Positions 3,317 through 30,336 of a stretch of DNA of 37,410 bases are shown here, one piece after another. The stretch lies in the UHGV virus genome UHGV-1374559; one strand, 5' to 3'. This DNA comes from a virus. Position 1 is the stretch's first letter, and every line of letters begins with the position of its first letter. The notes under the pieces are model-generated. The model saw only the letters and a list, made by a program, of their open reading frames with translations, did no database searches and was not told the DNA's origin. Both the position numbers and the translations under genes were made by a program.

Positions 3317-3922
3317 ATGACAAAACAAGTAAATTTTAGACCAGAAGTGAAAAAAGTGACATCTAAATCAAACGGAAATATCGAAGTGCTATTAGTGGTT
3401 AGCAACGCTTCATTAAAAGGAAAATATGAAAGTTTAAACGAATTTTTAGGCAAAACAGTATCAACGACCATTGAGCCAGAAACAGTAGAATACAAGGTAC
3501 CAGTTAACAAGCAGACCAATAAGCCGAATGTCGAATATGTTGTAAATAACGACGGGACAGTTGAAGTTCTAAAAGAAGAACAAACTTCTTTAGAAATGGG
3601 CGATGATGTGCAAGAAGTCGAAGAAGTTGCTGTGCAAGTATCGAAAGAAACCATTGACGAATTCATAAAGAAAGCAACGACTATCGAATGGCCAGAATCA
3701 GTAACAATCAACGTTCGTGGCGTATTGCATCGAATAGATGAAGGGGAAGCGCTAGAAGAAATTGCGTCTGATCATGATGTTTCAGTTGAAAATCTAATCA
3801 ACCAAGTTGAACTTGCACGCCAACATTTTGCACCGTTTGCAGATTCTTGGAGCAAAAACAAAGAGAACATCATTTTCCCTGAAAAGACAGTTGAAGATGA
3901 TGAAGAAGAAATCGAAGAATAA
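3317..3922 (+). CDS. hypothetical acidic phage protein
   Basis: ORF with a very acidic C-terminus (EDDEEEIEE). No motifs recognised. Confidence 0.45.
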   Translation: MTKQVNFRPEVKKVTSKSNGNIEVLLVVSNASLKGKYESLNEFLGKTVSTTIEPETVEYKVPVNKQTNKPNVEYVVNNDGTVEVLKEEQTSLEMGDDVQEVEEVAVQVSKETIDEFIKKATTIEWPESVTINVRGVLHRIDEGEALEEIASDHDVSVENLINQVELARQHFAPFADSWSKNKENIIFPEKTVEDDEEEIEE

Positions 3923-5517: not shown

Positions 5518-5589
5518 TGGAGCATAGCTTAATCGGTAGAGCAGCGATCTCCAAAACCGTTAGTATAGGTTCGAGTCCTATTGTTCCAG
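5518..5589 (+). tRNA. tRNA-Trp (CCA anticodon)-like gene, no encoded CCA end, one A·C mismatch in the anticodon stem
   Basis: Folded by hand: acceptor TGGAGCA/TGTTCCA; D-arm GCTT-AATCGGTA-GAGC; anticodon arm GCGAT-CTCCAAA-ACCGT; variable loop TAGT; T-arm ATAGG-TTCGAGT-CCTAT; discriminator G. Closely parallels Bacillus-type tRNA-Trp. Confidence 0.5.
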
Positions 5590-5770
5590 TAAGTGGCATA
5601 AGCTACTTAAATAAAAAATCGTCAATAAGTCAAATGTAACTACCTTTACGATCAGATGACGGTTAAGATTTTCTTTCCTATCCTAGACTCCGCGTAAGAG
5701 TGCAGTCTTTTTCTTATTCTTTTTTTCAAAAATCTATAGTATTATAGAGAAAAAAAGAATGAGGTTATAC

Positions 5771-12503: not shown

Positions 12504-13649
12504 ATGACAATCAATTTAAAAGGAATGGTCAATTATCAAGAAAAGCGTAAAGCTTTTATTGAATCTGTAAAAAATGGTGATCCACAGGAAAAACAAAATG
12601 AATTATACGAAGTATCTATGAATGCTTTAGCAGAAGACATGGTAGCAGAGGCTAAAAAAGAAGCTCGTATGGAAGCAGAAGAATTTATCAATGCTTCAAA
12701 AATGGATAAAGGCATTACGCCTAAAGAAGTTAAATTCTTTAACGCAGTCACTGAAACAGGCTGGAAAGATGAAGAACTACTTCCTGAAACAACAGTGGAT
12801 GAAATTTTTAATGATTTAACAAGAGAACGTCCATTATTAAAAGAATTAGGCTTAAAGTACACAGGTTTACGCTTGAAAATCTTAAAATCTGATCCAAAAG
12901 GTGCCATTGTTTGGGGTAAAATTTTCGGCGAAATTAAAGGTCAGTTAGATGCAACCTTCAGCGAAGACGATGCAAAACAAAGCAAAGCAACAGCATTTGT
13001 AGTATTACCAAACGATCTATTAGAATATGGTCCTGTTTGGATTAAACGTTATGTAACTACTCAAATTAAAGAGGCATTTGCTGTTGGCTTCGAAGATGCT
13101 TTCCTAAATGGCGATGGAAACGATAAGCCTATTGGTTTAACTCGTGACTTAGCAAAGGGAGCTACTTCAAACGGTGTGACTACTTATCCAGAGAAAGAAG
13201 CAGCAGGAACTTTAACTTTTGCCGATGAAAAAACAGCGATTAAAGAATTAAAAGAAATGCGTAAATACCATTCTGTTAAAGAAAATGGCAAACGTATTTC
13301 TGTCGCTGGGAAAGTAGTTATTGTTGCGAGCCCGGATGAAGCTTTGGATATTGAAACAGAGTTTACTTCTCGTAATGCAATGGGGGACTGGGTTACGAAA
13401 TTACCTTTTGGATTGCGGATTGTGGAATCTGATTTCCAAAAATCTGGAAAAGTTACCACTTTTGTTAGTGGTCGTTACGATGCATTTGCTGCAGGAGCAT
13501 TAGTGATCAAAGAATACGATCAAACATTAGCTTTAGAAGATTGTCGTTTATTCACTGCAAAACAATTTGCGTTTGGTAAAGCACAAGACAACAAAGTTGC
13601 AGCTGTATGGACATTATCAATTAATGGAGACCCAGAGACGGGGAAGTAG
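12504..13649 (+). CDS. major capsid protein (HK97 fold); possible -1 recoded extension to 13711
   Basis: Size and position. RBS AGGAGG. See finding on 3' recoding. Confidence 0.85.
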   Translation: MTINLKGMVNYQEKRKAFIESVKNGDPQEKQNELYEVSMNALAEDMVAEAKKEARMEAEEFINASKMDKGITPKEVKFFNAVTETGWKDEELLPETTVDEIFNDLTRERPLLKELGLKYTGLRLKILKSDPKGAIVWGKIFGEIKGQLDATFSEDDAKQSKATAFVVLPNDLLEYGPVWIKRYVTTQIKEAFAVGFEDAFLNGDGNDKPIGLTRDLAKGATSNGVTTYPEKEAAGTLTFADEKTAIKELKEMRKYHSVKENGKRISVAGKVVIVASPDEALDIETEFTSRNAMGDWVTKLPFGLRIVESDFQKSGKVTTFVSGRYDAFAAGALVIKEYDQTLALEDCRLFTAKQFAFGKAQDNKVAAVWTLSINGDPETGK

Positions 13650-13726
13650 CAATCCCCGTGATTGAAAAAGTCACGCCAACAACAGACGGGGCTGTTGTAA
13701 ATCTGAAATAACAGGGGAGGGATTCA

Positions 13727-14782: not shown

Positions 14783-15174
14783 AAGATATGATGATGGAAG
14801 TTTACAATGCCTTGATTGAAAATGGAATAATTAAAGAGCTTGTGACACCTCAAAGAATTAAATTTTACGAAGTACCAGGAACTTTGGATACTACCAAACC
14901 TTTCATTATCATTGATAACTTTCTTGGTCCACAAACCAACGCTTATTTTGCCAACAATAAAGCTTTATCAATTAGGTTTAACTATCAAATCAACGTTGAA
15001 AGCATGGACAGAATGGTAACCAAGCAAATTTCTAAAGCAGTTGAAGAAACAATGAAACAAATTGGTTTTGGTCGCCTAGATGGTGGCTTAGATCAGTACT
15101 TTAACGAAACAAAACGTTTTGTAGATGCAAGACGTTACAGAAAAAATACACAAATTCACGACACCGACTATTAA
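14779..15174 (+). CDS. tail completion / terminator-like protein
   Basis: Coupled. Size and position. Confidence 0.45.
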   Translation: MKDMMMEVYNALIENGIIKELVTPQRIKFYEVPGTLDTTKPFIIIDNFLGPQTNAYFANNKALSIRFNYQINVESMDRMVTKQISKAVEETMKQIGFGRLDGGLDQYFNETKRFVDARRYRKNTQIHDTDY

Positions 15175-15206
15175 GTTGGTGTCTATTTTTTAGGAGGAAA
15201 AAATTT

Positions 15207-15800
15207 ATGCAAACATACGGATTTAGCAGAATCACTATTCAACAATTGGACAATGAATTAAAGCCAGTCGCTGGTAAGAAACATGTCATTGATGGCAAGC
15301 CAAAAGAAGGGGCCGCAGCAAGCTTTGAAATTACAGGACTAACCAAAGAACCGTCAAAAGTTTTCGGTTCAAACATTGCATATTACGTGGCACGTAAAGG
15401 GCACGGAGATATTGCAGCAAACTTAGGTATCTTAGATGTACCATCAGCCATTGAACATGAAATGTTAGGGCATAAAAAAGCTAGCGAGGAAAGCAAAGTT
15501 TATCATATTGGCGAGGATACAGAACCACCTTACTACGCAGTATTAATCGAATCAGAAGATTTATATGGTGAAAAACTTGGCTTCGGCATGTATGCAGGCA
15601 CATTCTCATTAGATGGTGTCAAAGGCGAAACATTAAATGATGACGACTTTACACCAGAGCCTGGCGAATATGTTTATTCTGCTGTTTCTCGTCAAATTAA
15701 CGGTAAAAAAGTTACTGTCGGTTTTGCAGATAATTCAGAAGCTCTAGCAGAATTGACAACAGAATTATTTGGTGAAGAAACACCAGCGCCGGAAAAGTAG
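15207..15800 (+). CDS. major tail protein; possible -1 recoded extension to 15862
   Basis: RBS AGGAGG. Position before the chaperones and tape measure. See finding. Confidence 0.7.
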   Translation: MQTYGFSRITIQQLDNELKPVAGKKHVIDGKPKEGAAASFEITGLTKEPSKVFGSNIAYYVARKGHGDIAANLGILDVPSAIEHEMLGHKKASEESKVYHIGEDTEPPYYAVLIESEDLYGEKLGFGMYAGTFSLDGVKGETLNDDDFTPEPGEYVYSAVSRQINGKKVTVGFADNSEALAELTTELFGEETPAPEK

Positions 15801-15873
15801 CAAGCCCCACAGTGGGAGCTGTTACTCCCACCACAGATGGGGCCAATATTGAATTAAGTTAGGAGGACAAGAA

Positions 15874-16347
15874 ATGTCGTTTATTCCACCAGAAAAATTT
15901 AGACTTTATAAAAAAGGTGAAACTAATCCTGTTGCAGAAGGTGTTTCACCTTTAGCTATTACAGGAATTGCCGCAAATACGGATGTTTTAGCAGGTGACT
16001 TTACTGTCACAGGCGTTGCCACCGTTGACGGTGTAGAAAAAGAATCTGATCATGTCGATGTACCAGCGTTTAAAACACTACCTATTGCAGTAACAGGAAT
16101 TACCTTGGATAAGACTGAATTAGCTTTAAAAGTTGGTGAAACAGCAACTTTAACACCTACAATCATGCCAGAAAACGCAACAAACAAAGTATACAGTTTC
16201 AGTTCTGAAGATACAGCGATCGGAACAGTAACGCCTGTACAGGGAAAAGTAAAAGGAGTTGCGGAAGGTGTTACAAAAATTGTTGGCACAACTGAGGACG
16301 GTAATTTTACAGCAGAATGCACTTTGACTGTATCAGCAGCAGAATAA
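15874..16347 (+). CDS. Ig-like (Big_2) domain protein, tail-associated
   Basis: RBS AGGAGG. C-terminal …TGITLDKTELALKVGETATLTPTI…VTKIVGTTEDGNFTAECTLTV… is a Big_2-type Ig-like fold signature. Confidence 0.55.
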   Translation: MSFIPPEKFRLYKKGETNPVAEGVSPLAITGIAANTDVLAGDFTVTGVATVDGVEKESDHVDVPAFKTLPIAVTGITLDKTELALKVGETATLTPTIMPENATNKVYSFSSEDTAIGTVTPVQGKVKGVAEGVTKIVGTTEDGNFTAECTLTVSAAE

Positions 16348-16361
16348 AAATTTATTGATTA

Positions 16362-16391
16362 AGGACGGCTTTAATTAGTCGTCCTTTTTTT
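16362..16391 (+). terminator. rho-independent terminator (AGGACG-loop-CGTCCT + T6)
   Basis: Stem 16362-16367 / 16380-16385 followed by TTTTTT. Confidence 0.7.
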
Positions 16392-16403: not shown

Positions 16404-16751
16404 ATGGAACGCAAGATTGAACTTACTTTACGTATTGATGGCGAAGAAAAAACTTTTACACAGGACTTTGTGCCGTTTTCTAAGCGTACAGACTATATAA
16501 AAAAAGAAAATTCACTTAGAGAAGAAAAAACAAGCAAAGGATTAGAACCAACAGCTGACGAGTATTTAGAAATGCAAATTCAATTCGTCGCCGATTTATT
16601 CGATGAAAAGGAACTTACTAAAGAAGCAATCCTTAACGGTATGGATGCTTTAGACATTGACGAAATATGGGAAATTATCAGCTATCGAGTTCTAGGCCTG
16701 TCTAAGACAGATGTGGAAGAGTCAAAAAAGGAAGAGGCGGAGGAAATCTAA
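16404..16751 (+). CDS. tail assembly chaperone (gpG-like)
   Basis: RBS GGAGG. Acidic. Immediately upstream of the tape measure. Contains the slippery heptamer A_AAA_AAG at 16724-16730 in frame. Confidence 0.6.
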   Translation: MERKIELTLRIDGEEKTFTQDFVPFSKRTDYIKKENSLREEKTSKGLEPTADEYLEMQIQFVADLFDEKELTKEAILNGMDALDIDEIWEIISYRVLGLSKTDVEESKKEEAEEI

Positions 16752-16954
16752 GTTGGTCTGAATTTTATGACCTGCAGATTGGTTTTGTCCGTGATTCAGT
16801 TACAGAACTTGGGTGGACGATTCGGGATTTCATGAATACTGATTGCTTGGATATTGATGAAATTTTATTGAAGGCACCAAAGAACAAGAAAACTAAAAAG
16901 AAAAAACAAGAGGTGCGACCATTAAGTGAATTAGTCAAGCGTGGTGGTGCATAA
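16724..16954 (+). CDS. -1 frameshift extension of the tail assembly chaperone (gpGT-like product, 16404..16954 via slip at A_AAA_AAG)
   Basis: Open -1 frame from the heptamer to TAA 16952-16954, encoding …SWSEFYDLQIGFVRD…KNKKTKKKKQEVRPLSELVKRGGA. The gap between chaperone and tape measure has no other start/RBS. Confidence 0.5.
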   Translation, partial: KKGRGGGNLSWSEFYDLQIGFVRDSVTELGWTIRDFMNTDCLDIDEILLKAPKNKKTKKKKQEVRPLSELVKRGGA

Positions 16955-16972
16955 AGGGAAGGAGGTAACTAA

Positions 16973-30264: not shown

Positions 30265-30336
30265 GAACTATTGGTTCAGTTGGTTAGAGCCAACCGCTCA
30301 TAGCGGTTAGGTACAGTTCGAGTCCTGTATGGTCCA
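30265..30336 (+). tRNA. tRNA-like sequence, CAT anticodon (Met/Ile2-type), degenerate (T-arm one base short, A·C in acceptor): probable attP core / tRNA 3' remnant
   Basis: Hand fold: acceptor GAACTAT/ATGGTCC with 6/7 pairs; D-arm GTTC-AGTTGGTTA-GAGC; anticodon arm AACCG-CTCATAG-CGGTT; TTCGAGT T-loop but 5' T-stem lacks one G. Lies adjacent to the integrase region. Confidence 0.4.

Follow-up and report, generated by a model that had tools for sequence, protein, structure and literature searches.

Probable programmed -1 frameshifting at the ends of the capsid and tail tube genes of an Enterococcus faecalis phage

Why does an open reading frame (ORF) continue in the -1 frame past the stop codon of the major capsid gene in the virus genome UHGV-1374559, and why is the same arrangement found again at the end of its tail tube gene? 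The whole stretch of 37,410 nucleotides (nt) was analyzed and is referred to here as the window. The first-pass annotation proposed programmed -1 recoding that yields an extended form of the capsid protein, and comparative evidence favors this proposal: the cassette is conserved, the -1 frame carries a coding signature, homologous peptides are reached by +1 shifts or in frame, and the site has the geometry of that in Listeria phage A500. It is likely that ribosomes undergo a programmed -1 shift as they finish the capsid and tail tube genes and that a near-identical C-terminal tag is thereby added to some of the subunits of both proteins.

The two gene ends and their relatives

The major capsid gene (12504..13649, + strand) encodes an HK97-type protein of 381 amino acids (aa) (Pfam PF05065 Phage_capsid, E 3.5e-14), whose closest annotated relative is Cps of Listeria phage B025 (56% identical). 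Its 0 frame ends in GAC CCA GAG ACG GGG AAG TAG. The proposed -1 shift site, G_GGG_AAG (13640..13646, +), is a one-base variant of G_GGA_AAG and is followed directly by the 0-frame stop TAG (13647..13649, +). The -1 extension ORF (13646..13711, +) encodes VAIPVIEKVTPTTDGAVVNLK and then reaches TAA at 13709-13711; it begins at 13643 with E if a slip on G_GGG precedes decoding of AAG. From 13643, the -1 frame reads E-V-A-I-P-V-I-E-K-V-T-P-T-T-D-G-A-V-V-N-L-K, exactly the 22 codons up to that TAA that the first-pass annotation had described beyond the TAG of the capsid gene.

The tail tube (major tail) protein gene (15207..15800, +; 197 aa; Pfam PF04630 Phage_TTP_1, E 1.4e-8) ends in CCG GAA AAG TAG. 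Its proposed -1 shift site, G_GAA_AAG (15791..15797, +), is also one base from G_GGA_AAG and lies directly 5' of the 0-frame stop TAG (15798..15800, +). The -1 extension ORF of the tail gene (15797..15862, +) encodes VASPTVGAVTPTTDGANIELS, reading K-V-A-S-P-T-V-G-A-V-T-P-T-T-D-G-A-N-I-E-L-S, and then stops at TAG (15860-62). This repeats the capsid layout, as had been noted together with a shared VAxP...VTPTTDGA...L peptide, and the two cassettes are identical at 43/72 nt and 13/22 residues. Common to both are AAGTAGCAA, a C-run 6-7 nt past the last sense codon, and a matching G-run in the Asp-Gly-Ala codons.

In the proposed mechanism, a minority of ribosomes would slip one base back at the last two sense codons (G_GGG_AAG at 13640-46 and G_GAA_AAG at 15791-97). 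The slip would be promoted by the slowly decoded 0-frame stop next in line and by a GC-rich stem that starts 6-7 nt downstream, where mRNA enters the ribosome. Without a slip, termination would release the normal protein; ribosomes that slip would read 21-22 further codons, giving capsid and tail tube subunits tagged V-A-x-P-...-V-T-P-T-T-D-G-A-...-L-x. That ribosomes shift here, which tRNA slips, how efficiently, and what the tag does are points that we infer from sequence. The capsid extension would be recognizable by the diagnostic tryptic peptides VAIPVIEK and VTPTTDGAVVNLK, and also by VAAVWTLSINGDPETGEVAIPVIEK if, and only if, the slip is on G_GGG.

An open frame of 22 codons is unremarkable on its own, and it is the comparative pattern that carries the weight. 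Among the close relatives (98-100% capsid identity), 20 viral contigs extend to the site, and every one of them retains GGGGAAG-TAG together with an uninterrupted -1 ORF of 22 codons. To widen the collection, viral contigs were searched for the codon pattern of VTPTTDGA, and short ORFs were then extracted. The collection holds more than 50 distinct cassettes, located after various capsid and tail genes in phages of Enterococcus, Brochothrix, and other Firmicutes, and often both genes of one phage carry the cassette, ~2.1-2.5 kb apart. A set of 26 diverse cassettes, including the two from the window and that of ORF10 in phage phiEf11, aligns without any gap. The window extensions share the family pattern, [SA]-P-x-[VI]-...-V-[TI]-P-T-T-D-G-A-...-L-x, with a stop after 21-22 codons.

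The 26 aligned cassettes vary as a protein-coding sequence would in the -1 frame. Entropy by codon position in this frame is 0.71/0.63/1.39, so that the third position is about twice as variable, and 46% of the differing codon pairs are synonymous, a share that falls to 10% and 4% in the two remaining frames. No cassette has an internal stop in the -1 frame, versus 21/26 and 24/26 in the others. These figures are inflated because the cassettes were chosen in part by their peptide, but the codon periodicity of the -1 frame is unambiguous all the same. The alignment of related phages that the first-pass annotation had suggested as a check finds the extension kept throughout the close relatives and free of stops in all 26 cassettes. 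The 22-residue extension has no Pfam match, and tblastn with the 22-aa peptide returned no matches because the query is too short.

Distant relatives from the same capsid family show three arrangements after the capsid gene: nothing, a helix-hairpin-helix extension of ~50 aa, or the short tag. Listeria phage B025 has no extension after its capsid gene. The ~50-aa extensions sit behind G_GGA_AAC_TAA or similar sites; at five loci (L005, L010, L017, L080, and L105), an extension of the gp7 type, ~46-57 aa long and carrying the helix-hairpin-helix motif ...W.V.EIK.YLD..GI.YS....K.ELL.L.., starts right after the capsid stop and is accessed by a -1 shift, or by a +1 shift in L080. The short tag is accessed by -1 at G_GGA_AAA_TAG or G_GGA_AAG_TAA or by +1 at CCC_TAA or CCC_TAG, with CCC_TAA in Staphylococcus-type prophages and CCC_TAG in the capsid genes of lytic Efquatrovirus phages. 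Since relatives of one family carry the tag, a gp7-type extension, or nothing, the slot after the capsid gene is filled by interchangeable modules. The tail protein of phiEf11 (ORF15) has the tag in frame at its C terminus (...KVDSPSVESVTPTFDGASTELS / ...EKVDSPSVESVTPTFDGASTELS), which indicates that the tag peptide is a real protein module.

The heptamers of the distinct -1 cassettes are GGGGGAG (16), GGGGAAG (10), GGAAAAG (8), GGGAAAA (7), AAAAAAA (3), GTCAAAA (3), GGGAAAG (2), AACAAAG (2), and GGGAAAC (1), and a 0-frame stop (TAA or TAG) is directly 3' of the heptamer in every -1 cassette surveyed. Canonical heptamers at homologous sites are GGGAAAG, GGGAAAA, AAAAAAA, and GGGAAAC. The capsid heptamer of the window, GGGGAAG, is also found in locus L124. 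For each heptamer type, at least one tRNA re-pairs perfectly at -1; where re-pairing is imperfect, a G.U takes the place of an A-U pair, and only in GTCAAAA and AACAAAG is the P-site codon unable to re-pair at all. Both window heptamers are one base off G_GGA_AAG and combine one perfect tRNA re-pairing with one that includes a G.U pair. At the capsid site, tRNA-Gly re-pairs perfectly (GGG to GGG) and tRNA-Lys would meet GAA and form a G.U pair at its first position; at the tail site, tRNA-Lys re-pairs perfectly on AAA (A_AAG) and the P-site tRNA on GAA would re-pair on GGA. Locus L137 has the canonical GGGAAAG at its tail site, where the window, L127, and L164 have GGAAAAG. This heptamer is polymorphic within one phage lineage (GGGAAAG in 3 contigs, GGAAAAG in most), with a change of the 0-frame residue from Gly to Glu. 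L137 and the window therefore offer a natural pair for gauging the weight of a canonical heptamer.

Several loci have a TGA that closes the -1 frame one or two codons upstream of the heptamer, which confines the shift to the heptamer codons there. Sites of the TCA_AAA_TAG and ACA_AAG_TAA types let only the last tRNA slip, and the tail site of the window has no G_GGG; together these suggest that the common denominator of the family is the tRNA on the last sense codon beside the stop. A slip of tRNA-Gly on G_GGG, as put forward in the first-pass annotation, is not required, given a tail site without G_GGG and a constant element that consists of the last codon and the stop. The most likely junctions would thus keep the 0-frame lysine, giving ...ETGK|VAIPV... 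in the capsid protein and ...PAPEK|VASPT... in the tail protein. This is favored over the capsid alternative in which tRNA-Gly alone slips on G_GGG and gives ...ETG|EVAIPV....

RNA structure and alternative explanations

At the tail site, GCCCCA (15804-09) and UGGGGC (15838-43) form a stem (15804..15843, +) that starts 6 nt past the last sense codon and encloses a 7-bp hairpin, GUGGGAG (15812-18)/CUCCCAC (15825-31). This is the minimum free energy structure (-22.1 kcal/mol; z -2.3 versus dinucleotide shuffles), and 1/300 synonymous recodes is as stable (z -2.9). At the capsid site, CCCCGU (13654-59) and ACGGGG (13686-91) can pair in a long-range stem (13654..13691, +) that starts 7 nt past the last sense codon, and the minimum free energy structure consists of two local hairpins (13657-63/13669-75 and 13679-85/13692-98; -15.6 kcal/mol); 0/300 synonymous recodes are as stable (z -3.5). 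Structure 5-9 nt past the heptamer is present at both window sites and is more stable than in shuffled or recoded controls.

The codons that build these stems are rare: CCC accounts for 3% of Pro codons and GGG for 11% of Gly codons in the structural genes of the phage, and both are used at both sites. Across the cassettes, the C-run persists even though its codon phase differs (AAC CCC, GCC CCG, and TCC CCT), and a stem of at least 5 bp starts 4-7 nt (mostly 5-7) past the last sense codon in 21/26. The pair flanking the stem switches among G-C, A-U, and G-U, and one lineage has GCUCCAUCUGUA/UACAGAUGGAGC. CCCC and GGGG are combined only in -1 cassettes. The rare codons, the phases of the C-run, the 21 stems, and folding better than that of recodes are evidence that the stem of C-run and G-run is selected.

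Several observations weigh against frameshifting at these sites. Both window heptamers break the X_XXY_YYZ rule (capsid A-site AAG on GAA; tail P-site GAA on GGA). The capsid long-range stem is not the predicted ground state, as it folds at -13.1 kcal/mol, 2.5 worse than the optimum, and makes up ~11% of the ensemble. As for the stem- or pseudoknot-capable structure that had been described here, CCCCGT and ACGGGG are complementary, but the outer stem is suboptimal, and a pseudoknot between CCCC and the loop of the second capsid hairpin is unsupported, having a zero-length loop across a 4-bp stem and no equivalent at the tail site. The internal CGTGA/TCACG hairpin that had been placed within this stem is also in the sequence, but because its CGT is part of the outer stem as well, full pairing of one excludes full pairing of the other. 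Compensatory changes in the stems had been claimed as well; these come down to the one switching flanking pair, and the covariation count is no better than that of column shuffles (79.5% versus 78.7% paired, with 123/500 shuffles as high), the paired columns of the gapless alignment being almost invariant.

Three further points lie on the same side. The +1 and in-frame phiEf11 versions of the cassette likewise fold somewhat more stably than recoded controls (z roughly -1 to -3), so that excess structure is not specific to -1 sites; a stem confined to -1 cassettes, considered as a clean control, failed for this reason. Most cassettes were gathered by their peptide motif, which inflates the conservation statistics. 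Finally, mass spectrometry of phiEf11 found no extension peptides (PMC5221750).

If the cassettes were decaying relics, a canonical G_GGA_AAG would once have been used, one-base changes would have largely killed the shift, and the ORF and stem would only be inherited. The noncanonical heptamers of the window would fit such a history, as would the GGGAAAG retained by L137, a close relative at the tail site, and the unseen peptides of phiEf11 (PMC5221750). However, GGGGAAG is invariant and the ORFs are intact in all 20 close relatives, and GGGGGAG, GGGGAAG, and GGAAAAG are the majority among independent lineages, where they come with an open frame, third-position variation, and rare-codon stems. 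A dead 22-codon ORF in AT-rich DNA would also soon gain stops, which 21/26 and 24/26 cassettes have in the two remaining frames, and decay is accordingly an unlikely account. We consider it less likely still that the hairpins act at the RNA level only, steering mRNA stability, processing, or translation of the next gene, with the open -1 frame as a by-product. The stable stems do occupy the only sizeable gaps between structural genes, and a terminator-like hairpin does follow the Efquatrovirus cassette. Yet there is no T-run terminator on the + strand at the capsid or tail site and no Rfam family match at E <= 1, and such a role would leave unexplained the periodicity in one frame, the 46% synonymous share, the lack of stops, the fixed heptamer and stop, and the in-frame peptide of phiEf11 ORF15.

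An independent small gene of 17-22 codons, translated from an internal GTG (13658 in the capsid cassette and about 15812 in the tail cassette) with the heptamer as its ribosome binding site, would draw on the in-frame GTG that lies 11-14 nt past the G-rich stretch in both window cassettes. This is highly improbable, as 34/55 distinct cassettes have no ATG, GTG, or TTG in their first ten codons, the conserved part of the peptide begins upstream of the GTG, and the peptide is fused in frame to the phiEf11 tail protein. Hardly any weight can be given to an assembly error or a frameshift mutation in which a one-base indel split longer capsid and tail genes: only the bare change of frame speaks for it, and the exact 381-aa capsid protein is recorded in 306 blocks of public assemblies, ending at the same stop, with the same layout at two genes and in dozens of independent genomes. 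Programmed -1 frameshifting remains the likely explanation for both gene ends.

The adjacent Ig-like protein gene and the phage

The gene that starts 11 nt after the stop of the tail extension (15874..16347, +) encodes a 157-aa protein with a conserved N-terminal beta domain of ~70 aa, here called bigN (no Pfam match), followed by an Ig-like Big_2 domain (residues 72-150, E 6e-15). Over all fetched loci, the tag and bigN are both present in 110 and both absent in 90, with the tag alone in 14 and bigN alone in 5. The tag-only loci are mostly cut off near the tag, and the five bigN-only loci are all Staphylococcus-type +1 cassettes missed by the pattern. All examined phages with a cassette have a bigN gene, whereas bigN is absent from members of this capsid family with no tag and from those with the helix-hairpin-helix extension. 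Tag and bigN occur together whether the tag is reached by -1, by +1, or in frame, and whether bigN lies behind the capsid gene, as in Efquatrovirus, or behind the tail gene. The gap between a cassette and bigN is usually 4-18 nt, and in Efquatrovirus it is 58-62 nt. For example, the tail gene of Brochothrix phage BtpYZU02 ends in G_GGA_AAG_TAA, followed by the tag and then by a gene for bigN and Big_2.

In the lytic Efquatrovirus phages, the capsid gene ends in CCC_TAG and is followed by a +1 tag, STPPVVGQVTPADT.ATIEL., and then by a bigN-only gene of 66-73 residues. The +1 ORF and the bigN gene are at 1489-1556 and 1618-1818 in RioGrande (locus L220), 1062-1189 and 1189-1410 in EfaCPT1 (L222), and 1062-1130 and 1192-1392 in heks (L223). 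In all three phages, the 21-codon +1 ORF (STPPVVGQVTPADTSATIELS and variants) is unannotated, and the bigN homologue is labeled "major tail protein" though it lies beside the capsid gene. Current annotations have thus probably overlooked both a recoding event and a head decoration protein.

As a working guess, the tagged subunits, a set fraction of the total, would serve as anchoring sites for the Ig-like protein encoded next door. A more specific version, possible but doubtful, is that the tag and bigN are two halves of one fibronectin-III-like beta sandwich and that the tag is a candidate docking socket for the Ig-like protein. Two strands, the first of the sandwich (...SPTVGAV... and ...GANIELS), would come from the tag and the remaining five (FRLYKK, VAEGV, SPLAITGI, FTVTGVA, and VDVPAFK) from bigN. 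Frameshifting would then equip a fixed share of the capsid and tail tube subunits with a donor-strand socket, onto which the Ig-like decoration protein would clip noncovalently.

Structure prediction and profile searches bear on this docking idea in several ways. AlphaFold with 60 homologues gives a mean pLDDT of 87.5 and places the SPLAITGI segment confidently but without a beta partner, and hhalign puts this segment on the E-F strands of 10Fn3 with low probability. The AlphaFold model counts against docking in that the tag is left undocked and disordered (pLDDT 34-43), although the tag had no alignment depth; prediction without an alignment was uninformative (pLDDT 49). Tag plus bigN has no Pfam match, and a profile search of the PDB gave nothing meaningful; this absence of sequence matches also counts against the idea, as does that of an unsplit ancestor. 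A profile search found 329 bigN proteins. Among the best 120, bigN invariably belongs to a small stand-alone protein whose C-terminal Ig-like domain varies, and there is no tag-bigN fusion and no unsplit ancestor. One-piece tblastn matches that were considered as an unsplit tag plus bigN ran through stop codons.

The matches of the window identify it as a temperate phage or prophage of Enterococcus faecalis: other parts of it match E. faecalis phages with 90-96% identity (all such matches being unannotated fragments), its exact capsid protein recurs in the public assemblies cited above, for instance in GCA_000157135.1, and a protein identical to the tail-adjacent neighbor (15874..16347) is recorded as a protein of E. 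faecalis. No near-identical record turned up when annotated phages were searched by megablast with the capsid region, and the structural module of the window was not found in the annotated phage collection. The phage has two tRNA genes, tRNA-Trp (cca) at 5518-5589 and tRNA-Met (cat) at 30265-30336, and the former lies within a stretch ~80% identical to phiFL1-type phages. Terminator-like hairpins with T-runs are found on the + strand at 15160-15183, just before the tail tube gene, and at 16361-16386, just after the Big_2 gene. They bracket the tail tube gene, the tag, and the Ig-like protein gene, which is a possible expression unit.

Downstream, a gene with a Phage_TAC_19 domain (ORF 16404..16751) carries near its end a -1 site of the tail-assembly-chaperone (G/GT) type, A_AAA_AAG (16724-16730). 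Past this site, the -1 frame is open for ~75 further codons to TAA (16953-16955), reaching the tape measure gene. This textbook chaperone site is the third -1 site in the operon of the capsid and tail tube genes.

None of the records examined includes the long form of a capsid or tail tube protein, and Efquatrovirus phages are therapy candidates against E. faecalis, for which the true composition of the virion matters. The natural site variants, always with an adjacent stop (G_GGA_AAG, G_GGG_AAG, G_GGG_GAG, G_GAA_AAG, A_AAA_AAA, and TCA_AAA), and the +1 CCC_TAG counterparts that reach the same peptide make up a ready series on the re-pairings and stimulators tolerated by the Gram-positive ribosome. 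If the tag is a docking site, these phages would set the copy number of a surface decoration via the efficiency of frameshifting, and tag and bigN would give head and tail alike a small natural tag-and-catcher pair.

Comparison with known recoding systems

Frameshifting has been described for the structural genes of several Listeria phages. In A118 and A500, the capsid gene has a -1 frameshift and the tail gene a +1 frameshift at CCC_UGA, and PSA uses +1 in both genes (PMC5009743, a review that covers the A118 and A500 work of Dorscht et al. 2009). Long and short forms of the PSA capsid and tail proteins were reported by Zimmer et al. (2003), with the adjacent stop and downstream RNA structure as stimulators (PMC5009743). 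The first-pass annotation described the A118 and PSA shifts as +1, which is right for PSA and for the tail genes, but the capsid shift of A118 and A500 is reported as -1 (PMC5009743). Its reading of the window as -1 agrees with the A500 capsid-gene site, G_GGA_AAC_TAA plus hairpin. The A500 cps gene, as read here, ends in GCG GGA AAC TAA followed by a GC-rich hairpin, and its -1 ORF is the annotated gp7.

A118 and A500 therefore resemble the window in having a heptamer of the G_GGA_AAN type, a directly adjacent stop, a GC-rich hairpin shortly downstream, and a -1 ORF that would lengthen the capsid protein, and all are temperate siphoviruses of low-GC Gram-positive hosts. Compared with the A118 and A500 capsid site, however, the window heptamers are one-base variants, and the A500 extension (gp7) has 52 aa with a helix-hairpin-helix-like motif, whereas that of the window is a 22-aa tag unrelated to it in sequence. 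At the A500 tail gene, a +1 shift at CCC_TGA adds Big_2, whereas the window has the -1 cassette at both genes and Big_2 on a separate protein. PSA is similar to the window in that one phage would make long and short forms of both its capsid and tail tube proteins by 3' recoding, but it does so by +1 on CCC proline codons and with different extensions. The +1 relatives of the tag (CCC_TAG in Efquatrovirus and CCC_TAA in Staphylococcus-type prophages) are mechanistically closer to PSA than the window is.

Among phages of the same host species, phiEf11 provides the nearest precedent. Its virions contain two capsid bands ~3 kDa apart (Stevens et al. 2016, PMC5221750), and a -1 shift on AAAAAAA-TAG was proposed for the major head protein, ORF10, that would add 21 residues and is followed by a stem-loop of -20 kcal/mol (PMC5221750). 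The authors call their proposal speculative because mass spectrometry did not find the extension (PMC5221750). The phiEf11 capsid gene carries the same cassette as the window, with A_AAA_AAA_TAG followed by KIEAPKVESVIPTTDGASIVLS and a GCCCCG/CGGGGC stem. Besides the cassette, a homologous peptide, and the host species, the two phages share a homologue of the protein with bigN and Big_2 after the tail gene (ORF16 in phiEf11). They differ in that phiEf11 has another capsid protein family, the canonical A_AAA_AAA, and a tail tag in frame without recoding. The phiEf11 tail protein runs at 28 kDa versus 21.5 kDa predicted (PMC5221750). The Thr-rich tag may be modified after translation, which would fit both this mobility and the missing peptides. 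Within phiEf11 (locus L219), the ORF15 tag (5650-5715) has the Pro codon CCT and no C-run, and that of ORF10 (3620-3690) has a CCCC run.

C-terminal extension of major virion proteins by frameshifting is a known strategy of other phages, with Lactobacillus phage A2 (gp5A/5B and gp10A/10B), T7 (gp10A/10B), and SPP1 (gp17.1/17.1*) as examples. Fraser and colleagues reportedly described, in 2006, a "promiscuity" of Ig-like domains among phage virion proteins. As in these systems, a fixed fraction of subunits would gain a C-terminal module by recoding in the window, where the product is proposed from sequence, and the same module is found on different virion proteins, in or out of frame. However, the extensions of A2, T7, and SPP1 are whole domains of ~80-100 aa, whereas ~20 residues are too few to fold alone: the 22-residue window extension is not a complete Ig-like domain, and Big_2 sits on the separate protein encoded at 15874..16347.

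The heptamer of the lambda G-T shift is G_GGA_AAG. Shifts of this chaperone type belong to the same purine heptamer class as the two window sites, and the operon of the window has its own copy at 16724-30. Unlike the capsid and tail tube sites, a chaperone shift takes place inside the overlap of two ORFs, has no adjacent stop, needs no stem, and yields an assembly factor.

Thus, -1 recoding of a capsid gene with the A500 geometry was already known, and the phiEf11 capsid cassette had already been proposed (PMC5221750). What the window would add to these systems are noncanonical heptamers, the use of one -1 cassette at capsid and tail genes alike, and a very short extension.

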